A stretch of DNA of 64,000 nucleotides, taken from IMG/VR virus record IMGVR_UViG_3300025383_000015, positions 1 to 64,000 of that record. The stretch is one strand, 5' to 3'. Both the position numbers and the translations under genes were made by a program. Source of the stretch: a virus. The notes under the pieces were generated by a model, which saw nothing but the letters and a program-made list of their open reading frames with translations, ran no database searches and was not told the DNA's origin. Positions 23,505 to 36,356 of this stretch are shown in pieces. Position 1 is the stretch's first letter. Each line of letters opens with the position of its first letter.

Positions 23505-23575
23505 CTCCCAGGCCTGGACTCGAACCAAGATACTCGCCTCCAAAGGGCGATGTCCTACCATTAGACGACCTGGGA
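23505..23575 (-). tRNA. tRNA-Gln (anticodon TTG), CCA not encoded
   Basis: TCCCAGG/CCTGGGA acceptor, TAATGG D-loop, TCGCC-CTTTGGA-GGCGA anticodon arm, GGTTCGAGTCC T-arm. Confidence 0.95.
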
Positions 23576-24890: not shown

Positions 24891-24979
24891 AACCTGATTT
24901 TAGGGCTACTGCCTGCCTTTGTACCCCTCAACCATGTCTCTGCCCTGGGCCTCTCCCTCGTGCGATCGCGTTTAACCAT

Positions 24980-25001
24980 GGGGGGTGGCAGGGGGTGGCG
25001 G
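24980..25001. repeat. G-tract, (GGGGGTGGC)x2
   Basis: GGGGGGTGGCAGGGGGTGGCGG. Confidence 0.85.
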
Positions 25002-25059
25002 TGTTACCAATTTGTACCTCATTACAAGTCATGTACATCGGTGTTAACACACGCGTGAA

Positions 25060-25300
25060 TGCGTGCCTGCATGCCTGCTTGGTGACAATCTTGGTGACAC
25101 GATCACTCTGCAGGCTCGGCTACTGTCGCAGAATGTTGCATGCCTGCATCGGTACGACCAGACGATCAGGTGTGCCACCCCACTAATAACAGATACGTGC
25201 ATGCGTGCATCGTTGCATCGTTGTCGCGTTGCATGCATGTGCGAATACATCGGACAACTGCACATGCAATCAATCAATACAACTCTGCATGCACTGCAAC
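25060..25300. repeat. TGCA/GCATGC-rich short-repeat array
   Basis: About 14 TGCA in ~240 bp, partly in 8-bp units. Confidence 0.8.
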
Positions 25301-25315
25301 AGATCATCACGAATC

Positions 25316-25352
25316 TATCTCTCTCTTCTTATTCTTCTTCTTCTCTCTCTAT
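25316..25352. repeat. Pyrimidine-rich mirror repeat
   Basis: TATCTCTCTCTTCTTATT-C-TTCTTCTTCTCTCTCTAT; 18-nt arms with 1 mismatch. Confidence 0.85.
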
Positions 25353-25572
25353 TTGATTATCAAACTCTGGAAGAAAAAACACTTGGCGCGATTTCACGCG
25401 ATCACGTGCCTCACGATCGTTTAACTTTCAACTAACTAATTGAATCTTCAACTAATTTTATCAATCTACTTATATCGGACATTGTGGACACGATGACTGG
25501 TCAAAGTTACTTACACCCCACAAAATATGCATATAAATCGGACATATCGACCCAATAAATGCGTGCGCCTAT

Positions 25573-25601
25573 TTGACCTTGTCCTATAAATACGGAATAG
25601 T
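25573..25601 (+). promoter_or_regulatory. Housekeeping-sigma early promoter
   Basis: TTGACC-17 bp-AATAGT at the head of the plus-strand operon. Confidence 0.6.
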
Positions 25602-25608
25602 GCTCCTT

Positions 25609-25960
25609 GTACACACGCGGTAGCGATTAGATCAGGTCAGAATCCCCTAGGGGCACCGATCGAAATCAAAGCCAGAAGTGGTAAAGGGTACAGATACACA
25701 GCAGTTAGTCGGTGTAGTGGGCAACAGTCATTAAATCCCTAGGGAACTGACCCGCGTGACGAAAACCTGCGAGGGGTATCGAATTACATAGAGAACTCAG
25801 AACACAATTAGCGGGGCTGGTCATGGACTGCCACTCAGGTGCAGGCGGTAATCAATCCGACCGACAGAACAGTGACACCAGCCCCTACTAATTGCTCCCA
25901 GAACTGTCCATGACTCGATCGTGGGCGGTTCTGGTAGCAATCTGGTGCTATCTCTACATG
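25609..25960 (+). ncRNA. Large structured RNA (ncRNA or structured leader), family unknown
   Basis: Multiple nested helices with G-U pairs, a GCGA tetraloop and a probable pseudoknot (see findings). Confidence 0.65.
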
Positions 25961-25973
25961 AAGGGCAAATCCA

Positions 25974-26102
25974 ATGACAAAGAAAAATAAATCATGCAGT
26001 CAACATGCAATCTGCGTTTCCTCCGATAGCAACTTGCCAGAGTGCAAGTGCTGGTGTGCAGAGTGCCGTCAATACTTCCGCAATCTTCGGAAGGGTGCGT
26101 AA
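25974..26102 (+). CDS. Small Cys-rich early protein
   Basis: Not in the ORF track; GAAGGG RBS; MTKKNKSCSQHAIC...CKCWCAEC. Confidence 0.5.
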   Translation: MTKKNKSCSQHAICVSSDSNLPECKCWCAECRQYFRNLRKGA

Positions 26103-26104
26103 TC

Positions 26105-26356
26105 ATGACACCACGCAAACTCACATACGATAAGGCGCGAATCGCTCGCGAATTCGCTTGGCAACGCAATTCCTGCACAACACAAGTTGAAACCGATCTT
26201 CTTGACGTGATGATCGAACGCCTTGCATTCACAATCTTCGGCAGTCGATCACGTTTTCAACGCAACGAATTCCTACGAATCGCAAACTATAAGCGCGACT
26301 TCGACGGCAAATCTTTACTTGAGCAGTACGCATCATTAGTGCAAGGAGGCAACTAA
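26105..26356 (+). CDS. Early hypothetical protein
   Basis: Start MTPRKL after GAAGGG. Confidence 0.6.
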   Translation: MTPRKLTYDKARIAREFAWQRNSCTTQVETDLLDVMIERLAFTIFGSRSRFQRNEFLRIANYKRDFDGKSLLEQYASLVQGGN

Positions 26357-26992
26357 ATGGGACTCAAGGTTCAGGGCAAGATCAGGCGCGAGTGGTCAGC
26401 CGATCACGAGATCGTGGACTACTCATACATCATCGACACAATTGACGATCTTGAGGACTTTATTGCATACAACAGGGCATACCTCGTGTCCATGGAATTT
26501 ATTGGGCAATTGAATCGAGAGAGCGAATGAGCAAAGACATATTCGGCTTCGAGTCAGCCATTCAGATCGATCACTTAACAGAAGATCAACTTCAGCAAGT
26601 CGCAGAGATATTGAAAGGATTGAAGTAAGTGGAACTTAACAACATCGACAACGATCTTGAAGTGCTACGTCATTCTGTAGCCCCTTCTCTCTATGCATTC
26701 CTTATCAGTCAACTAACGCCAGAGGTGGTAAACGCATGAACAAAGTAATCATCACAGTTTCAGGCGGTGTTGCAGAAGTAACCCAGTGTCCTGCTGGTAT
26801 TGAGGTTGAGATCATCGACTATGACAATCTGGAGATCAACTCATGAAAACACTTGCAGTAATAATTCTTGCATTAATCATCGGTGTCTGGGGAGTCGCAT
26901 TCCGACTCACTCACCACCCTGTCTACAGAGGGTGTTCATGGCAGGCAGAGGGCTATGTCTGCAAACTCGTAAAGTGGGAGGGCAATAAGTGA
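26357..26992 (+). other. Chain of five coupled micro-ORFs (26357-26530, 26527-26628, 26629-26739, 26736-26846, 26843-26992)
   Basis: Abutting or ATGA-overlapping stop/start junctions, several with RBSs; none in the ORF track. Confidence 0.6.
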
Positions 26993-27303
26993 GCACGCTA
27001 TACAAAGAGGTTCAGGGCAAGCGCACCAGCAATTCAGGTGCACTCGAATACATCGCCAATCGCCAACCATTCAAAGCCAATTCCATGGCTGGTATCTATC
27101 CGAATTCCGATTACATCGGATATGGCAGGTTGCAGAGTGATCTCGTAGCACTTCTCAATAGCCAGCAACCCCACTACATCGTCTACTCCTATGGCACGCC
27201 TATCGCGTGGCATCACTCTGGTGGCTGGGAGATACCAGCCGTCAGGTACTCAGTCACTACTAGCAAGCACCAATCACTCGTCAGAAGGGCAGTCTGGTCA
27301 TGA
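26989..27303 (+). CDS. Phage early hypothetical protein
   Basis: YIVYSYGTPIAW...YSVTTSKHQ motif. Confidence 0.7.
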   Translation: MSTLYKEVQGKRTSNSGALEYIANRQPFKANSMAGIYPNSDYIGYGRLQSDLVALLNSQQPHYIVYSYGTPIAWHHSGGWEIPAVRYSVTTSKHQSLVRRAVWS

Positions 27304-27417
27304 TCGCGTTCTTATTTATAACCTGTATAGCAGTCACACTCTTCGCGGTGTGGCTTGATCACTTACTTACTCCCGACTCAGAACTACTCCGTCAAACTCT
27401 AGAAGAGGAAGAATCCA

Positions 27418-27693
27418 ATGGGCTCTAATTTCGCGCAAGACCTCGCCTCTGGCGAATTCGTACAATCGATTGATCAACAAATCTCAATTCACTTCGCTGG
27501 TAACTGCTATCCACCAGTACCGCAATTCATGGTCGAGCCAGCAGTTAAGGCGATCAATCAGATCAACGAGGGTGACACCACTACCGAGATCGAACTACCT
27601 GCTGGTGTCGAATTCAGGAACTCATCAACCTGTACACCATGGGAGATAGTCAATGCTCTACGACTCAATGCGTGGATTAACGAGGAGGACTAA
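27418..27693 (+). CDS. Early hypothetical protein
   Basis: RBS; HFAGNCYPPVP. Confidence 0.65.
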   Translation: MGSNFAQDLASGEFVQSIDQQISIHFAGNCYPPVPQFMVEPAVKAINQINEGDTTTEIELPAGVEFRNSSTCTPWEIVNALRLNAWINEED

Positions 27694-27954
27694 GTGTACG
27701 AATTCGAATTAGATGAACTAGGCATCATGGGTGCCATGCTTGATAAGTCGCTGGAATTCGCCAACGAAACTGGTGCACCCATAGTCATAACTGCAACTCT
27801 TGAATCTGCACTCACTAAACTCAAAGCAATCATCGAGCATAGGTTAGAAGAGCACAACACATTCGTAGATATCGCTAACTCGTTAGATGATCTCTTCGAT
27901 ACATCGCAAGCAATCATCAAAGACCCAGAAGTATCTACACCCGACTACAACTAG
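27694..27954 (+). CDS. Acidic hypothetical protein
   Basis: GGAGG RBS, GTG start. Confidence 0.6.
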   Translation: MYEFELDELGIMGAMLDKSLEFANETGAPIVITATLESALTKLKAIIEHRLEEHNTFVDIANSLDDLFDTSQAIIKDPEVSTPDYN

Positions 27955-27963
27955 GAGAACAAC

Positions 27964-28836
27964 ATGCACTCACTCAATCAATTAATTCCTTCAATAGCAT
28001 CACAAGATCACTACGTAGATCGATCATTCTGTGGAGTCACAGGTGTTCAGATCGCAGACTTCGCACTAAAGAATAAGATCAACATTCTCAATGCTGGTCA
28101 CGCTGGTACAGGTAAGACATCGTTCGCGCAGTACTACGCAAGCCAGAGAGGACTTCCCTATGTATCACTTCCGTCAAACTCAGCACTTAGTGCTAACGAA
28201 TTACAAGGCAACTGGGTCACACAGGACGGCAAACTCGAATGGGTCGACTCAATCTATGTCAAAGTATGGCGTGAAGGTGGAGTGCTCAATCTCGGTGAGG
28301 TTGATCAACTCGCAAAGAATGCTCAGTACTTTTTCCATGAAGGTACAGATCACCGCCGTACACTCACACTCACAGCACACGATTACGAAGTCGTACATGC
28401 TCACCCAGACCTGCTTATCATCGGTGACTGGAACCCAATGTACCGAGGTCGACAACCTCTCTCAGAGTCGTGGGCTGATCGCTTCCAATTAAAACTTCGT
28501 TACGAATACGATCGTGACATCGAAAGCAAGTTTATTCGATCAGGCTCTCTGCTTGATCTTGCATTCGGTATGCGATCACAATCTCGTGGCGTTGATCTAG
28601 GACAAGCAAGCAAGTCCACAGTATTCGAGACACCGATCACTCCACGCATTCTCAAAACGTTCGAATTAGTAGCACGTGAATTGAACTTCGATCTTGCGTG
28701 TGAAGTGTTCGCTAACAACTTCAATGATGAAGAACGACCAGCAGTAAAGATGCTCCTAGAGGGCGCATCATTCAATATCAAGGACGATCTAGGCATCGAT
28801 CAAGAGCAAGTAACACCAGAGTACGAGACAGTCTAA
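27964..28836 (+). CDS. MoxR/CbbQ/CobS-like AAA+ ATPase
   Basis: GHAGTGKT; Walker B variant LNLGEVD; WNPMYRG..PLSESWADRF. Confidence 0.85.
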   Translation: MHSLNQLIPSIASQDHYVDRSFCGVTGVQIADFALKNKINILNAGHAGTGKTSFAQYYASQRGLPYVSLPSNSALSANELQGNWVTQDGKLEWVDSIYVKVWREGGVLNLGEVDQLAKNAQYFFHEGTDHRRTLTLTAHDYEVVHAHPDLLIIGDWNPMYRGRQPLSESWADRFQLKLRYEYDRDIESKFIRSGSLLDLAFGMRSQSRGVDLGQASKSTVFETPITPRILKTFELVARELNFDLACEVFANNFNDEERPAVKMLLEGASFNIKDDLGIDQEQVTPEYETV

Positions 28837-28846
28837 GGAGCACGTC

Positions 28847-30796
28847 ATGAGCGAGATCAACATCACCGATCTAGGTAAGATCTTCGAAGAACTACAAGAG
28901 ATAAGTGAAGAGCAGAAAGAACTAGAGGCTAAACGCCAGCGTATCGAACGATTTACTGGATTCTTCTCTCGAGTTAACTCTGCCTTCTCATTTCGACCTG
29001 TAACAGTTAAGGTCGAGACTTCACCAGTCAAAGCACCAGCGTGGTCTGGGGCTAGTGAAGTGTTCTTCAATTCCAATGAGATCGGTGATCTTGATACGCC
29101 AGAGTCAATCGCTAGCATCAAGGGACTTGATCTTCATGAAGTAAGCCATATCCTTTACACCAGCCGTCAAGGTAGCGATCTCGTTGAGCGAGTGATCGAT
29201 AAGAGCATGTGGACTGCATTCAATGCGTTAGAAGATCAACGTATCGAGTCATTCTTCACTGCTAAGTATCCTTCAACTATCCCATGGTTCGTGTCTATGA
29301 TCTTGATTCACTTCAAGAACAACCCAGAAGTATTCGAGAACTCATACCCACTTCTCTGTGGTCGCAGATACTTGCCAGTCGAGATTCGTAAAGAGTCTCG
29401 TGCGCTATATCCGCATCAAGATAAGATCGATCAATTCAAAGCGATCATCAATGAATACCGCACCCTTGTATTCCCTACAGATACAGATCGTGGAGTCGAA
29501 TTAATCGAGCAGTACTACAACCTGCTACCAAAGAGCGAAGGTGGTAATGGTGAAGAGACTGGTAAGCCAAAGTACAAGGCAGTCAAAGATGACGGCACAG
29601 GTACAGGTACACCAATCAAAGTAATCGACCCATGTGGTCATGGTGCTCGACCAACAGAAGGTATCGAGTCATCAGTCAACTCTCGCCCAGTCCCACCACG
29701 TCAGCAGGAGAAGGAGCGCGATCGTCTTAATAGCCAATCAAAAGATATCGATGATGATCTACCAGAGATTAATGCAGAAGATATTGATTGGTCGGAATTC
29801 AATGGTCAAGATCAAGAGCCTAGTGATCAAAAGTCTGATGATGAGATCACCGACTCTGAAAGTGGAGATGCTCAAGAGCCAAGCGATAACGTGAACTCTG
29901 GAGAAGGTGCTGGCAATACTGCTGGTGAATTAATCGAGACAATCCTCGGTGAGATTCTTAGCCAGTCTGGTATTGCTCAAGAGATCAACGACATGCTACG
30001 AGTGATCAATGGCAAGCCACTTCTGGATTCGAATAACGAAAGCGAACCAATACGTGCTAACTGGAAGGAGTTAGTCCCAGACAACGTGACAGTAGAAGCC
30101 TCTCGATCATTCGGTCGTGAACTTGAACGCTTGCGTGCATCATTCGAACCTGCTTGGGATACCTACGAGAACTCAGGTCGACTCAGTATCGGTCGTTACG
30201 TTAGGGGCGATGACTTCGACACTATCTTCGATCAATGGAACGAAGGTCGTGAAGATGCTACAGATATCGAGTGCGTAATTGTGCTTGATAACTCTGGCTC
30301 AATGAGTGGACAGAAGATCGCAAACGCCAATCGTGCGATGTATGCGATCAAGCGTGCACTCGATCGTATCGATGCAAGCACAACAGTAGTCACGTTCTCT
30401 GACGAAGCACGCCTTCTCTACCATGCAACTGAGAAGTCGAATTCATTCATCAGAGATGCGTTCAGCAACGGCGGTACAGAACCAGATCAAGCGATCAGGT
30501 ATGCAACCAAGGTTCTTGCTGAAAGTAATCGCAAGATCAAGATCTTCTTCGCGATCACTGACGGAGTGTGGTACGGCGATCAAGACACTAACAATGAAGC
30601 GATCGAACGTATGGCTCGCTCTGGTGTGCTGACTGCCTTTGCCTACATTCCAGAGGGCAACGAAGAGATAGAACTGACTGCAAATAAAGCACACAAGTGT
30701 GAGATCGGTGCAGTAGTACGTAATCCATTCGACCTAATTACCATGGCACGAGCGATCGTTAAGTACGCGATCTCTCGCAGACTAACTAACGCATAA
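28847..30796 (+). CDS. VWA-domain protein with N-terminal HExxH motif (CobT-like partner)
   Basis: LHEVSH, FNALEDQRIE, MIDAS DNSGSM...GGT...ITDG. Confidence 0.85.
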   Translation: MSEINITDLGKIFEELQEISEEQKELEAKRQRIERFTGFFSRVNSAFSFRPVTVKVETSPVKAPAWSGASEVFFNSNEIGDLDTPESIASIKGLDLHEVSHILYTSRQGSDLVERVIDKSMWTAFNALEDQRIESFFTAKYPSTIPWFVSMILIHFKNNPEVFENSYPLLCGRRYLPVEIRKESRALYPHQDKIDQFKAIINEYRTLVFPTDTDRGVELIEQYYNLLPKSEGGNGEETGKPKYKAVKDDGTGTGTPIKVIDPCGHGARPTEGIESSVNSRPVPPRQQEKERDRLNSQSKDIDDDLPEINAEDIDWSEFNGQDQEPSDQKSDDEITDSESGDAQEPSDNVNSGEGAGNTAGELIETILGEILSQSGIAQEINDMLRVINGKPLLDSNNESEPIRANWKELVPDNVTVEASRSFGRELERLRASFEPAWDTYENSGRLSIGRYVRGDDFDTIFDQWNEGREDATDIECVIVLDNSGSMSGQKIANANRAMYAIKRALDRIDASTTVVTFSDEARLLYHATEKSNSFIRDAFSNGGTEPDQAIRYATKVLAESNRKIKIFFAITDGVWYGDQDTNNEAIERMARSGVLTAFAYIPEGNEEIELTANKAHKCEIGAVVRNPFDLITMARAIVKYAISRRLTNA

Positions 30797-30806
30797 GGAG
30801 GACAAC

Positions 30807-31415
30807 ATGAAGCAAGCAGATCTTAAAGTAGGTATTAAATACGGAGTCATTCCTTCTTGGGAGTACTCATCAGCAAATAAGAAGAACCCAGAGTCAGTAG
30901 AGCGTAGAGATCTTGCTAAAGCAGAACTCGTAAGCCTCGATAAGTATGAGTACGTTGTCTACAAGTCAGACACTCCAGACAACCCTACCTTCAAACGAGC
31001 ACCACAGGGCTCGCGCTCTGTGGGATACCTCGTCAAGTCATACTCCTATGGTGTAGAGCCTATTTACTGGGTGTCACGTGCACAGGACATCGTCTCTGAT
31101 TATGAGTCACTAGAGACTCGGTGGAATATCGCTGAGGAGATTGCATTCAAGCGTGCTGAAGAAGCACGTCTTGCACTTGAAGAACGTCAGCGCAAAGAGC
31201 GTGAGCAACAGGAGCGTGCAGATCGATTGGCTAAGGCAGTCAAAGATTCACTTCGTACGATCATTGGTGATCGCGTTGAGTCAATCTCTATGTCCTCTCG
31301 TAGCAAGCGCAACTCATTAGGTGAGTACACACCTACTTACTTATTCGAGATTGATACATCAGTCATGCAGGTAATAGTAGAGAAGGTTCTAGAAGCAAGG
31401 GACATGGTGAAATGA
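30807..31415 (+). CDS. Hypothetical protein
   Basis: AGGAGG RBS. Confidence 0.7.
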   Translation: MKQADLKVGIKYGVIPSWEYSSANKKNPESVERRDLAKAELVSLDKYEYVVYKSDTPDNPTFKRAPQGSRSVGYLVKSYSYGVEPIYWVSRAQDIVSDYESLETRWNIAEEIAFKRAEEARLALEERQRKEREQQERADRLAKAVKDSLRTIIGDRVESISMSSRSKRNSLGEYTPTYLFEIDTSVMQVIVEKVLEARDMVK

Positions 31416-32158
31416 CAGACTCATTCTACTTAACGCGGTTAAAGCACTACTACGAGAACAACCAGTACTCAACCAAACAAGGTGACGTCACTTACTCTAC
31501 TTATATCAATCGTAAACACTTAGGTAACACTGCAGAGATCAAATACTCCGAGATCTCCTACAGCGAAGAGACATACAAGGGTCATCAATTGATCATTCGT
31601 AAGGTCACTACCAACTGGGCATTCGTTCTTGAGAATGGTCACTGCGGTAGGTTCAGTGAAGATCAAGCAAAGGCTTTACCAGATCGTGGAGAGTGGCAGA
31701 CAGAGACAAGTTATTCAGCCTATGCATGGCGCATTCGAGATCGTGACGTTGAACCAGAGATACTAGATCATCTTTGGGGAAATGACCGATTCATCGTGGA
31801 TAACTACACAACTAACTCGCAGAAGCAGACAACGAGCAAAGCAAAGAAGCGCATCGATATTGAGGCGGTTCTTCTTGATCACAAGTCAGTGCTTAACGAG
31901 TTAGCAGGAAATCTAGTGTGGGGTAAACCAACTACTCAGCCTTACAACCTCAAGGTGCATGACTGGGTATGGATTCAAGCGCATGGCAGATTACGCAACG
32001 GCGTAGTTGTAGGCACTCAGGGTCGCAGGTTCATCGTAGGCTACACGACTCCCAGCAACCCTCACACCATGAAGTACAAGACACTCAACCTCTCTGACAT
32101 ATATGTTGTAGAGGGAGATCTCATCGAAACACAGGCACACAACTTCGTAAGAATATAA
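31412..32158 (+). CDS. Hypothetical protein
   Basis: ATGA overlap; possible C-terminal SH3/KOW-like region. Confidence 0.65.
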   Translation: MTDSFYLTRLKHYYENNQYSTKQGDVTYSTYINRKHLGNTAEIKYSEISYSEETYKGHQLIIRKVTTNWAFVLENGHCGRFSEDQAKALPDRGEWQTETSYSAYAWRIRDRDVEPEILDHLWGNDRFIVDNYTTNSQKQTTSKAKKRIDIEAVLLDHKSVLNELAGNLVWGKPTTQPYNLKVHDWVWIQAHGRLRNGVVVGTQGRRFIVGYTTPSNPHTMKYKTLNLSDIYVVEGDLIETQAHNFVRI

Positions 32159-32173
32159 GAATAGGAGCATGAC

Positions 32174-32428
32174 ATGAAAGTCAAAGAATTAATTGCGCAG
32201 TTAAATCGCGACCTCAAACCAGATGAAGAGATCATCGTGGCGTACTGGGACAAAGCAACAGTCGAGAGTTATGCAGAAGTAACTCTTACCGATAACCAAT
32301 GGACTGACATCGTTGCTGAGCAAGACAGATACGAGTCAATCGAACTTGATCGATTCGGTGAGCAACTTCAAGAGACCGCTACGGAAGTCGGTAAGTCAAT
32401 CTATGAAGAGGAGGAAAGTAATGCCTGA
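32174..32428 (+). CDS. Hypothetical protein
   Basis: MKVKELIAQL start; RBS. Confidence 0.65.
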   Translation: MKVKELIAQLNRDLKPDEEIIVAYWDKATVESYAEVTLTDNQWTDIVAEQDRYESIELDRFGEQLQETATEVGKSIYEEEESNA

Positions 32429-32584
32429 CAGCATTCATGCAGGGATAGTGCACGACTTAGAGGCAGAGGAGTATCACTACACATGCTCTACCTGTAGCAC
32501 ACAACTCTATGCACCCACTAAGGTTGAGATTCAAGATGCAATACCCAGACATACTAAAAGCAAGGACTGCTTAGGAGGCTATTA

Positions 32585-32839
32585 ATGAACCCCCCATACA
32601 ACGGCACGCAACTCTGTGCTCAAGTAGACCCAGAGGTGTTCTTCCCAATCAATAATTTTGAAAGGGCAGACAACATCGCTACGGCAATAAGTATCTGTAT
32701 TCAATGCCCACTTCTAAAAGAGTGTAGAGAGTATGCAGATTCACTGCCAGAGGTCTTTGGTGTATGGGGTGGCAAGATGTACGAAGTAAACATGTGGAAG
32801 AAAGAGATCACAAGGAAACCAATAGGGAGGGCTTCATAG
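32585..32839 (+). CDS. whiB: WhiB-family transcription factor (early copy)
   Basis: CAQVDPEVFFP...CIQCPLLKEC...GVWGG. Confidence 0.9.
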   Translation: MNPPYNGTQLCAQVDPEVFFPINNFERADNIATAISICIQCPLLKECREYADSLPEVFGVWGGKMYEVNMWKKEITRKPIGRAS

Positions 32840-33005
32840 TGGGCTATGCAGAAGTAATACGAGTAACACCAGAGCAATTAGATCTCTGCGACTCATGCAG
32901 TAACCAAGGCATGATCGACTCAGGTCACACTATCTATAGCAACTCAGGTGAGAGGTTGATCTTTATCTGCTTCAATTGCAAAGAAAAGATTCAGCGAGGA
33001 GAAGT

Positions 33006-33326
33006 ATGAGCCAAGAGGCAACCGAGTTAAAAAAAGCACTGATCATTGCCAGTGAGTTTATTAAGATCGCTCGTGGATTCAAGGTTGAGTCAGAGCGTGC
33101 TAATGGCTTACCGCCAGAGATCACAGAGCATTTAGCAAACGATCATCTTGATCGCGTTCTATCAGAGAACAACATAGAGCCAGAGATGATCATCTGGGGG
33201 CTGATGAAGATTATTGAGATTCTTCTTGCCTACACAGACCAATCAGTAGAAGAACTAACTGAGACTATCGATAAATTTGTCGAATACCTAAAGTCACAGG
33301 AGACAACCAATGAAGATCAATCTTAG
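33006..33326 (+). CDS. Hypothetical protein
   Basis: Start MSQEATEL after GAGGAG. Confidence 0.6.
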   Translation: MSQEATELKKALIIASEFIKIARGFKVESERANGLPPEITEHLANDHLDRVLSENNIEPEMIIWGLMKIIEILLAYTDQSVEELTETIDKFVEYLKSQETTNEDQS

Positions 33327-33340
33327 GAGAGTAATCAAGC

Positions 33341-33523
33341 ATGAGCGAATGGCTTACATATACAGACATCGCAAAATTAACGGGTCTAAAGTACGACACG
33401 ATCTACAGACATCGAAAGCGAAACACCCTTCCAGAGCCAGATCTACAGATCGGCAACAAACCACTCTGGAGCAAGTCAACGATTGATACATGGATAACCA
33501 AACGAGAGAGCAAAGGTAACTAA
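33341..33523 (+). CDS. AlpA/excisionase-like wHTH protein
   Basis: WLTYTDIAKLTGL...TIY..RKR..LPEPD...PLWSKSTIDTW. Confidence 0.75.
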   Translation: MSEWLTYTDIAKLTGLKYDTIYRHRKRNTLPEPDLQIGNKPLWSKSTIDTWITKRESKGN

Positions 33524-33524
33524 C

Positions 33525-33689
33525 ATGGCAACCCGATACGAGATTGACGTTGATGTCATGGTTGATCGCATTCGAGTCAACCTGTTCGATAAGAAGAGCA
33601 AAGCGGTAGCAGTAGGTAGTGGCACCACGATCGTAGAAGCATTCACTGATGCCTACGATCTCATCACCACTCAAGTACTGGAGGTATAA
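33525..33689 (+). CDS. Small hypothetical protein
   Basis: 54-aa ORF MATRYEIDV; not in the ORF track. Confidence 0.5.
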   Translation: MATRYEIDVDVMVDRIRVNLFDKKSKAVAVGSGTTIVEAFTDAYDLITTQVLEV

Positions 33690-33728
33690 CTAACTTCTGG
33701 GTTCTCTATGTATCTCGATACCCAGACT

Positions 33729-33768
33729 TTGACTATCGATCTACTGGTGGGTAATGTACTGACCAGTA
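33729..33768 (+). promoter_or_regulatory. Integrase promoter with palindromic operator-like site
   Basis: TTGACT-17 bp-TAATGT; TACTG-AC-CAGTA palindrome over the predicted start site. Confidence 0.65.
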
Positions 33769-33783
33769 ACAGGCTACGAGGAG

Positions 33784-35067
33784 GTGGCTATGGCTTATGT
33801 AGTGCAACGCGGTAAGCGATTTACCGCCTATTATCGTCTCAACGGCAAACGCCTCTCGGCTGGCACATGGGATTCCTATGCCAAGGCTGAGGCTTCGGCT
33901 ATGAAGGCTGAGGTTCTGGGCTTCTCAGAGCCTTCTGGGGCTGATTCCAGCCTTGCCACATACTTCACCAAGTGGCTCAAGACGGCTGATCTTATGCCGA
34001 TCACCAAGAAGCACTATGAATTAACTTTTCGAACATACGTTCTAAATCGCCTAGGCTCTCATGAAGTAACTTCCATTTCGGCCAAACAGATTCGAAAGTT
34101 ACTTAGTGATCTTAGACTCGAGGGCGTTAAGCCTGCCACGCTGGGACAGATCAAAGCATGCCTAGGGTCAGCCTTCGCCTCTCTCGTGGAGAATGAGGAG
34201 ATAGCGGTCAATCCCACCCATGGCATCAAGGTCAAGGTCAACCAGCCAGACCTGCACAATGTCCTAGAGCCTGCCGAATTCAAGAAGATACTAAGTAACT
34301 TACCTGGCGGAACCGGTTCCGGTGCAAAGTTACTTGCCAAGATGCTCGTTCTTTCTGGTGCTCGCTTTGGTGAGGCTACAGAACTCAGGGTAAAAGACTT
34401 CAATTTTAACTCTGGCGAGGTATTTATCCAGAGACGCGTGAGTGAATTGGGCGCAACCTACAACTCTGGCGAGAGATTCAAGGTTATAGATGCCACCAAG
34501 TCGGGCAGAAAACGCTCAATAACACTCTCAAAAGCCCTATTACATGAGATTAAAGCGTATGTCCTAGCAAAAGACCTACAAAAAGATGACCTACTCTTCC
34601 CAAGGAGCATCGTGTTAACGGCAGGTAAACTAGAACCTTCACGCGAGATCGATACTTCGCAGCCATACGCTGCGGGGGGAAAACGCTTCAAGCATGGAAC
34701 GCTATACTCCTACACCCATGGTGGCTGTAGATGCCAAGCCTGCAGGGAGGCAGTGCGAAAGCACCGCCAAGCCAAGGCAAGGTCAAAGGTAAAGCAGACC
34801 ATGACCAACGATAAGAGCCACTTACCGCGTGGAGTCTGGAGAACTACATGGAACCAAGCAATAGCCAAGTCAGGAATTGGCTGGACTCCTAGAACCCATG
34901 ACCTCCGTCATGCCAACGCCACCCTGTTGTTAAAGAACGGGGTAGACGTACATGAGGTCAAGGAACGTCTAGGTCACCAGTCAATTAAAACAACGGAGAG
35001 GTATTTACACCGCCTCCGTCACCAGCAGTCAACGGCAGGAGAACTCGCCAATGACTTTATGGAGTGA
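33784..35067 (+). CDS. int: Tyrosine recombinase/integrase with inserted Cys/His module
   Basis: GARFGE, HDLRH, LGH, TERY catalytic residues. Confidence 0.92.
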   Translation: MAMAYVVQRGKRFTAYYRLNGKRLSAGTWDSYAKAEASAMKAEVLGFSEPSGADSSLATYFTKWLKTADLMPITKKHYELTFRTYVLNRLGSHEVTSISAKQIRKLLSDLRLEGVKPATLGQIKACLGSAFASLVENEEIAVNPTHGIKVKVNQPDLHNVLEPAEFKKILSNLPGGTGSGAKLLAKMLVLSGARFGEATELRVKDFNFNSGEVFIQRRVSELGATYNSGERFKVIDATKSGRKRSITLSKALLHEIKAYVLAKDLQKDDLLFPRSIVLTAGKLEPSREIDTSQPYAAGGKRFKHGTLYSYTHGGCRCQACREAVRKHRQAKARSKVKQTMTNDKSHLPRGVWRTTWNQAIAKSGIGWTPRTHDLRHANATLLLKNGVDVHEVKERLGHQSIKTTERYLHRLRHQQSTAGELANDFME

Positions 35068-36157: not shown

Positions 36158-36347
36158 AAAAGCCTATCCAACCAAGTACAAGGCAGATAGAGCCTTAGGT
36201 ATCATTTGGAAGGTAAGCATCAGTACACAATCAACACGAACACGACCTTGTAGGTCATACCAGTGCAGTGAGTGTCATAAGTGGCACTTAACTAGCAGGT
36301 ACGATGTTGATCTCAAGGTAACGCAAGAAAGCCCTACCAAAAGGTAG
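36138..36347 (+). CDS. Small Zn-finger protein
   Basis: CGNKKAY...RSYQCSECHKWHLTS. Confidence 0.7.
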   Translation: MMQCGNKKAYPTKYKADRALGIIWKVSISTQSTRTRPCRSYQCSECHKWHLTSRYDVDLKVTQESPTKR

Positions 36348-36356
36348 GGCTTCTTG
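36324..36356. terminator. Bidirectional terminator at the convergence point
   Basis: CAAGAAAGCCCTACC-AAAA-GGTAGGGCTTCTTG. Confidence 0.7.

Follow-up and report, generated by a model that had tools for sequence, protein, structure and literature searches.

Stems cut by RNase III are found in the flanks of rRNA genes and at sites in the early mRNA of phage T7. Two phage elements are also relevant here: sib, a local hairpin downstream of int, and put, an RNA of about 70 nt with two stem-loops that is present at both early operons. The mRNAs of icaR and hbs are reportedly single-gene messages whose interacting sites lie a few hundred to about 1000 nt apart, and the icaR pairing is said to cover the Shine-Dalgarno sequence. 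In Staphylococcus aureus, the 5' and 3' untranslated regions (UTRs) of icaR pair and are cleaved by RNase III (PMC3868564), and 5'/3' UTR pairing has likewise been described for hbs of Bacillus subtilis (PMC5737220). In phage lambda, int is controlled according to the promoter of origin of its transcript, through sib (PMC5300877).

The phage locus analyzed here resembles icaR in that complementarity between 5' and 3' UTRs is conserved within what appears to be a single transcription unit. An icaR-type occlusion of the Shine-Dalgarno sequence was not found, as the leader segment concerned (segment A in Table 1) lies ~160 nt upstream of that sequence at 25960-25965. The window, to which coordinates refer unless a relative is named, is the whole stretch of 64,000 nt that was analyzed, the first 64 kb of an IMG/VR virus record of 100,324 bp.

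The early operon and its leader

Minus-strand genes lie left of 24890, and plus-strand genes run from 25974 to ~36350, where a strong terminator (36329-36352) closes the block. This block contains small ORFs, the genes of an AAA_5 ATPase and a VWA protein, an excisionase/HTH-like gene, a 54-codon ORF, and a tyrosine recombinase gene. The leader is located in the 1.1-kb divergent intergenic region, directly 3' of TTGACC-17-AATAGT, which a previous sequence-only reading had taken for its promoter. A sigma-70-like promoter at this place is confirmed, with conservation of the key positions: close relatives keep the TTG as well as positions 2 and 6 of the -10 box, and more distant relatives have, as read from the alignment, TG-extended -10 boxes at the same place. 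Transcription would start near 25608-25611. The leader contains no conserved ORF, in line with the earlier statement that it holds no credible plus-strand ORF, and the first ORF starts with the ATG at 25974. A terminator search detected no strong internal terminator between the leader and the operon end, and because gene orientation is also the same throughout, the leader and the complementary site downstream are likely to be carried on one transcript.

Several further observations concern the surroundings of the leader. The early operon (25803-33694, within 24949-34079) contains zero GGCC and zero CCWGG sites, which occur elsewhere at 1.3 and 1.75 per kb, and has 13.7 GATC sites per kb versus 4.2; TCGA and GAATTC are also enriched, at equal G+C content. 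The lack of GGCC and CCWGG sites is suggestive of restriction-site avoidance in the DNA that is first to enter or to act. Upstream of the early promoter (25420-25560; 3180-3300 in L007), inverted motifs TAATTGAA..TTCAACTA are repeated and conserved in relatives, as are TCGGACA..CGAC motifs repeated at 25420-25560; both are probably operators of this promoter. Two independent contigs of relatives end near window positions ~25000-25330 (viral contig 3300003815_000013 begins at ~25002, and metagenome contig Ga0208389_1000040 ends at ~25330), which fits a fixed genome end or a repeat nearby. A separate assembly of 100,326 bp has the leader at the same coordinate as the record of the window. The first ORF of the window is Cys-rich and has 42 codons (25974-26102). 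In many lineages, the first or second gene after the leader encodes a conserved protein of 57-59 residues and unknown family (3765-3944 in L007, 1306-1479 in L111), a gene that appears to be absent in the window.

On the sequence evidence, the element is a ~365-nt 5' leader (25609-25973) rather than a free-standing ncRNA gene, since it continues, with no terminator in between, into the Shine-Dalgarno sequence and start codon of the first ORF, both of them conserved. It is predicted to consist, in order, of a multi-hairpin domain 1, an exposed linker (segment A), domain 2, and two hairpins abutting the ribosome-binding site. The plus strand of 25605-25965 folds at -126 kcal/mol (z -3.63) and beats all 100 dinucleotide shuffles; the minus strand (z -1.53) does not, 7 of 100 shuffles being as good.

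Relatives were gathered via the neighboring ATPase, via exact patterns in viral and metagenome contigs, and via the integrase; the neighboring minus-strand protein, used as a search handle, returned none. BLAST against deposited phage genomes gave no match, and 18-mers scanned against prokaryotic genomes, one per species, yielded chance matches only, with no host or prophage copy. The viral 18-mer scan returned seven matches, two of them due to chance. About 20 phage lineages from metagenomes, with genomes of roughly 100 kb, carry homologous leaders. In close relatives (ATPase identity of 83%), the leader is conserved through the Shine-Dalgarno sequence and the ATG at 25974 and the sequences then diverge, because the first gene differs. 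The leader is single-copy in the 100-kb genome.

A scan of the window leader against Rfam 15 found no family at the gathering score, nor at E values up to 10, and no family was found for the distant homologues L111 and L106; the best Rfam matches were chance-level miRNA or snoRNA models (E of 0.2-10). The gathering score was not reached for C4, IsrK, riboswitches, small ribozymes, tmRNA, RNase P, or introns, in agreement with the sequence-only reading, which had not recognized the RNA as a tmRNA, RNase P, or an intron. The sole Rfam match at the gathering score in the window is a tRNA gene (23505-23575, minus strand). As judged by this comparison, the leader is a new RNA family without a described match in Rfam 15.

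Table 1. Positions of the promoters, leader elements, complementary segments, and genes discussed in the text
Feature	Position	Strand	Details
Early promoter	25573..25601	+	-35 box 25573-25578, 17-nt spacer, -10 box 25596-25601
Leader domain 1	25609..25765	+	Closing helix, H1, middle hairpin, H2
Closing helix	25614-25620 with 25752-25758	+	Probable
Hairpin H1	25630-25661	+	Carries 19-nt loop motif, 25637-25655
Middle hairpin TACAC/GTGTA	25695-25699 with 25712-25716	+	Recurs in relatives
Hairpin H2	25725-25749	+	Carries variant of 19-nt motif, 25728-25746
Small GCGA-loop hairpin	25766..25775	+	Varies among lineages; overlaps first bases of segment A
Segment A (IR-L)	25774..25802	+	Linker between domains; predicted single-stranded within the leader
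Leader domain 2	25805..25894	+	Stem 25805-25811/25888-25894 and 25813-25821/25877-25885, carrying the three-way-junction core
P3	25827-25830/25870-25873	+	Core helix
P4	25831-25839	+	Variable hairpin, interchangeable stable tetraloop caps
P5	25845-25848/25857-25861	+	8-nt loop 25849-25856
Long hairpin P6	25898..25934	+	16 bp, 25898-25913 with 25919-25934, several G-U pairs
Hairpin P7	25935..25950	+	Covaries; mutually exclusive with P6 extension
Shine-Dalgarno and start codon	25960..25976	+	Shine-Dalgarno 25960-25965, ATG 25974-25976; first early ORF
Excisionase-like gene	33341-33523	+	Matches phrog_597 and phrog_66; just upstream of downstream site
Downstream site (IR-R)	33695..33723	+	Complementary to 25774-25802
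Putative integrase promoter	33729..33757	+	-35 box 33729-33734, 17-nt spacer, weak -10 box 33752-33757; conserved in relatives
Tyrosine recombinase gene	33784-35067	+	Pfam Phage_integrase match; 3' of putative promoter

Helices of the leader

Comparison of homologues reveals compensatory changes in several helices, and such covariation, spread over many lineages, argues for a novel structured RNA on the plus strand. Taken together, the alignments indicate that the structured RNA at the head of the early transcript is real, conserved, and multi-helix. The sequence-only reading, which had called it a novel early phage ncRNA, was therefore right about its novelty and plus-strand structure but not about its being a separate gene, and only about half of its helix map agrees with the comparative data.

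For domain 2 and the 3' hairpins, an alignment of 12 leaders yields a consensus of 45 pairs with 99.6% of cells paired and 11 pairs showing double changes, counts that come from a modest number of independent lineages and, for several alignments, from fitting to the structures being tested. None of 500 shuffles does as well as the domain-2 consensus, and slid controls collapse, down to 26-46% paired in the covariation analysis. Both parts of the domain-2 stem that had been proposed, CAATTAG (25805-25811 with 25888-25894) and GGGGCTGGT (25813-25821 with 25877-25885), carry compensatory changes; the 9-bp part of this stem is replaced in one clade by an unrelated 11-bp helix. The ACTGCC/GGCGGT pairing suggested for the interior gives way to three covarying helices, namely ACUG/CAGU, a variable capped hairpin, and GCGG/CCG-C. 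Compensatory changes were found for 12 of the 15 core pairs in an alignment of more distant homologues and for 13 of 15 in a model-fitted alignment, in which the junction bases are invariant. The alignment of the three-way junction served to build a covariance model, which, when searched against the loci, had a single match at each locus in 19 sources, on the same strand as the integrase in every case. Together with the integrase positions, this places the core 8.4-9.9 kb upstream of the integrase.

The helix TAGAGA/TCTCTA, proposed to close domain 2, is absent in a divergent clade; TAGAGA is part of the long-range complementary segment described below. Further 3', compensatory changes in relatives corroborate the 16-bp helix P6, which can be extended by pairing of 25892-25896 with 25936-25940. 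The same five nucleotides could alternatively pair with the 3' strand of the stem base or with 25965-25969 in the gap between the Shine-Dalgarno sequence and the ATG, and these three pairings exclude one another; the one near the Shine-Dalgarno sequence is invariant and so gives no covariation signal. The Shine-Dalgarno sequence and ATG are kept together with the leader, and the first ORF itself varies by lineage; distant lineages have different sequence in the 3' portion of the leader and around the ribosome-binding site.

In domain 1, a 19-nt loop motif occurs twice, each copy with its own covarying closing stem, and among closer lineages the sequences of these stems differ while complementarity is kept. 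The motif has an inner CCC/GGG with a 4-nt loop, which becomes CUC/GAG in one lineage, and it was not found elsewhere in the genome. The previously noted TACAC/GTGTA hairpin recurs in relatives, and the closing helix CACGCG/CGCGTG is plausible to the extent that its CAC/GUG part is kept, the neighboring pairs varying as judged by eye. Two other pairings of the sequence-only reading were lost on comparison: CCCTAGGG/CCCTAGGG is not conserved as a long-range pairing, each CCC..GGG being a local hairpin inside the 19-nt motif, and GGTCAG/CTGACC fails in relatives. The pseudoknot that had been suggested between 25704 and 25857 shares this fate, since its domain-1 side varies (UCGG, GUGG, GCAG, GCGG) without compensation opposite a fixed domain-2 side, a stretch that is used in the covarying P5. 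A GCGA hairpin near 25766 is present in the window as described, but neither its sequence nor its loop is conserved. One domain-1 hairpin is swapped in L028/L014, and in the most distant lineages the whole of domain 1 is exchanged for other sequence.

Complementarity between the leader and the operon end

A search of the genome with its own leader revealed a second, inverted match to segment A, at a distance of 7.9 kb in the same operon. The two sequences are complementary over 29 nt at 90% and form the only such pair in the 100-kb genome. Their predicted duplex has an energy of -45.6 kcal/mol, in two uninterrupted helices of 9 and 18 pairs that flank an internal loop of 2 nt, compared with a mean of -14.7 (sd 4.2) and a best value of -28.2 for 1583 other 45-nt windows of the transcript. 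A 5-nt gap separates the downstream site from the last early stop codon on its 5' side, and another 5 nt separate it from the -35 box of the integrase promoter on its 3' side. In the lineage of the window, no terminator follows the site, and there is one pairing block instead of the three seen in many relatives. A reading of the repeat as a promoter for a phage polymerase was discarded, as the genome has only two copies.

The integrase promoter region has features of its own (33729-33783; L077-L085, L092-L139). Two GTTACT...AGTAAC-type dyads, represented in the window by TACTG..CAGTA, lie over the -10 box and the start, and in distant lineages these half-sites recur as another inverted pair, immediately upstream of the complementary site. 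These dyads are probably operators of a repressor.

The complementarity recurs in relatives in several arrangements. Leaders of the L011/L051 type have a near-identical complementary pair. In the L005 type, the downstream site, again contiguous, is another sequence of 36 nt, and its leader partner is split by ~185 nt, with both leader halves matching the site (18/18 and 20/22). A contiguous site that matches three separate leader segments in antiparallel order is found in eight types (L092, L098, L101, L106, L111, L114, L115, and L125), the three blocks being located after domain 1, just 5' of the domain-2 stem, and just 3' of it; L109, L119, L135, and L139 have two blocks. The blocks differ between lineages, among other things by a matched 1-nt indel and by A/G changes matched by U/C changes, and each matches its own site. 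The insertion of ~185 nt that splits the L005 segment (2419-2601; also in L014, L028, L041, and L047) has the short, duplication-like ATGGAC/ATGAC at its flanks, and its folding does not surpass that of shuffles (z -0.6).

Enrichment was assessed with exact matches of at least 12 nt, a 9-mer coverage statistic having proved too noisy. At 16 loci, inverted matches of this kind to the 190 nt upstream of the integrase number 29 in the leader windows (9.2 kb) and 2 in the other 130 kb. In relatives, the site always lies between the last early ORF and the integrase promoter. Several lineages have a strong intrinsic terminator directly after it, 4-14 nt away, so that the site falls within the 3' UTR of the early operon. 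For the most divergent of the close clades, the leaders (L030 type) can be connected with the integrase loci (L086/L087) only across separate short contigs. Isolated mismatches in the duplexes favor neither G-U nor A-C at 7 informative positions.

Interpretation and comparison with known systems

Despite sequence turnover, and despite the folded domains that split one partner, the complementarity has persisted, and for this reason RNA base pairing is favored over a DNA site for a protein or for recombination. As both partners are on the plus strand and within one apparent transcription unit, pairing of the 5' leader with the 3' end of the same early mRNA is the simplest model. We tentatively hold, at somewhat less than an even chance, that the leader pairs in this way with its own transcript, probably to process it or to insulate it from the integrase gene. 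Once the full 7.9-kb operon had been transcribed, segment A would pair with 33695-33723 on the same plus-strand RNA to give a panhandle, and the long duplex would be a processing site, most obviously for RNase III. Cleavage there would remove domain 1 from the mRNA and would separate the early message, with its excisionase-like gene, from read-through into the integrase gene, leaving the integrase promoter, whose transcripts begin downstream of the site, as the sole source of integrase. The RNA structure, the position of the site, and the conservation and covariation of the long-range complementarity rest on sequence comparison; RNA-RNA pairing in cis, cleavage, and the effect on integrase expression are inferred. 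Among the three roles that the sequence-only reading had offered, an RNase III-processed leader would fit best, by virtue of the strong long-range duplex with the operon 3' end; a put-like antiterminator and an anti-defense decoy are neither supported nor excluded, the element being single-copy and its loop motif present nowhere else in the genome.

Some features sit less easily with pairing and processing of the early mRNA. A local hairpin would be a simpler RNase III site than an interaction over 8-10 kb, and the distance is left unexplained, as are the invariant three-way-junction core and the 19-nt loop motifs, to which this model gives no role. The same sequence pattern would be expected if the RNA paired with DNA as an R-loop or if a processed leader fragment acted in trans, and the types of mismatch do not confirm the strand. 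The lineage of the window also lacks a terminator at the site and pairs through only one block, not three. It is conceivable, if rather improbable, that the leader is a sensor of operon completion, whose exposed, guide-like segments, set at the base of the folded domains, would capture the 3' UTR only after transcription of the full 8-10 kb operon and thereby switch the mRNA toward another fate in translation, decay, or read-through into the integrase gene; the core would read or carry out this switch as a new module for catalysis or for binding a ligand or protein. The leader RNA may also pair with DNA next to the integrase gene and thereby influence recombination.

An antisense regulator of the P1/P7 c4 and P4 CI type is unlikely, though it deserves consideration. 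The leader or a stable processed fragment of it would then pair with the nascent operon end and alter termination or read-through into the integrase instead of prompting cleavage. Separate segments of a folded leader RNA are indeed complementary to a contiguous target in the same transcription unit, in several lineages a terminator lies within 4-14 nt of this target, and P4, P1, P7, and N15 use leader-derived structured RNAs in this manner (PMC3632133). Yet the leader is not matched by the C4 and IsrK models of Rfam, the terminator stem lies outside the paired blocks, the lineage of the window has no terminator at the site, and the range of the known systems is hundreds of nucleotides as opposed to 8-10 kb. 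With a rather low probability, domain 2 could instead be mainly a sensor, a riboswitch or protein-binding operator that controls translation of the first cistron via alternative pairings beside the ribosome-binding site, the long-range complement being secondary. Its core does have invariant junction nucleotides framed by covarying helices, as expected of a riboswitch, together with one peripheral hairpin whose stable tetraloops are interchangeable; the three exclusive partners of 25892-25896 would provide the alternatives, and leader, Shine-Dalgarno sequence, and ATG are conserved as one unit. Against this, a consistent association with genes of one pathway was not found, the controlled first gene differing between lineages. 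The pairing near the Shine-Dalgarno sequence is invariant, so that covariation cannot judge it, distant lineages have a different leader 3' part and ribosome-binding region, and there is no candidate ligand or protein.

The location directly 3' of an early promoter, ahead of a long operon free of strong internal terminators, and the conserved structure bring to mind an RNA for processive antitermination of the HK022 put kind, which would fold on the nascent transcript, modify RNA polymerase, and be released by pairing at the operon end, where several lineages have a terminator after the complementary site. We regard this as improbable: the leader, at ~365 nt, is far larger than put, no weak internal terminators that need suppression were identified, and there is a single copy in the 100-kb genome and at every locus rather than one per early operon, downstream of each early promoter (putL, putR). 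The ability of putRNA to act alone on RNA polymerase (PMC9378689) is in keeping with such a role. That the leader is an abundant early decoy, titrating a host defense or RNA-binding protein via its repeated 19-nt loop motif, is still harder to credit. Two conserved copies of the motif on variable stems, in an RNA that would be the first made in infection and precedes a region free of certain restriction sites, would suit a decoy, but the motif is missing or replaced in L028, L014, and the L106 type, occurs nowhere else in the genome, and has no link to any defense system. We give the least credence to the repeats acting as DNA, either as sites for the adjacent tyrosine recombinase, with an invertible early segment between them, or as operators of a regulator. 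The inverted 29-bp repeats do flank a 7.9-kb segment that has its own restriction-site composition, and the recombinase gene lies 60 bp outside one of them. However, all contigs examined have one orientation, with no inverted arrangement in ~20 contigs or loci across the leader junction and in >20 across the integrase junction, and most lineages have one of the repeats broken into two or three pieces, with 100-250 nt of structured sequence between them and complementarity kept. The distance from the site to the integrase promoter also varies, with a terminator inserted in some lineages. Readings of the repeats as activator sites or recombination sites were rejected on account of this varying distance and the split leader copies.

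The three-way-junction motif defines a compact, covariation-supported family that is not in Rfam and is widespread in ~100-kb temperate phages of freshwater metagenomes. If the 5'-3' pairing with the operon end is real, it spans a distance far larger than in the icaR and hbs examples found and has a split, guide-like partner architecture, and it could provide a mechanism for separating integrase expression from early transcription or for timing early genes. The natural variants of the paired blocks across lineages form a ready-made set of compensatory mutants.

When these results are placed beside the described systems, there is a likeness to icaR and hbs, where complementary segments also lie in the 5' and 3' UTRs of one transcript and, in the case of icaR, the duplex is an RNase III substrate. 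Here, in contrast, the segments are 7.9-10 kb apart in a polycistronic phage operon, the Shine-Dalgarno sequence is uncovered, and the 5' partner is split in most lineages. As in the RNase III stems of rRNA and T7, sequences flanking a long segment would pair and the duplex would define mature ends; relative to rRNA stems, the distance is greater by several fold, three-way junctions break up the stem, and cleavage is putative. The analogy with sib is that an RNA structure formed only on early-promoter transcripts could distinguish them from integrase-promoter transcripts, the excisionase-like gene being on the early transcript, whereas the site here is upstream of the integrase gene and has its partner 8-10 kb away in the leader. 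The leader shares with put its nature as a structured, cis-acting RNA immediately downstream of a phage early promoter and differs in its ~365 nt, its single copy, and its long-range complement. In C4 and IsrK-like seqA (P4 CI, P1-P7 c4), too, a folded, leader-derived RNA presents short exposed segments that pair further along the unit (PMC3632133); the present leader matches them in neither sequence nor structure, is much larger, and has its targets kilobases rather than hundreds of nucleotides away. The long-range, split 5'-3' complementarity would thus be a new variant on known principles of RNA-RNA regulation.
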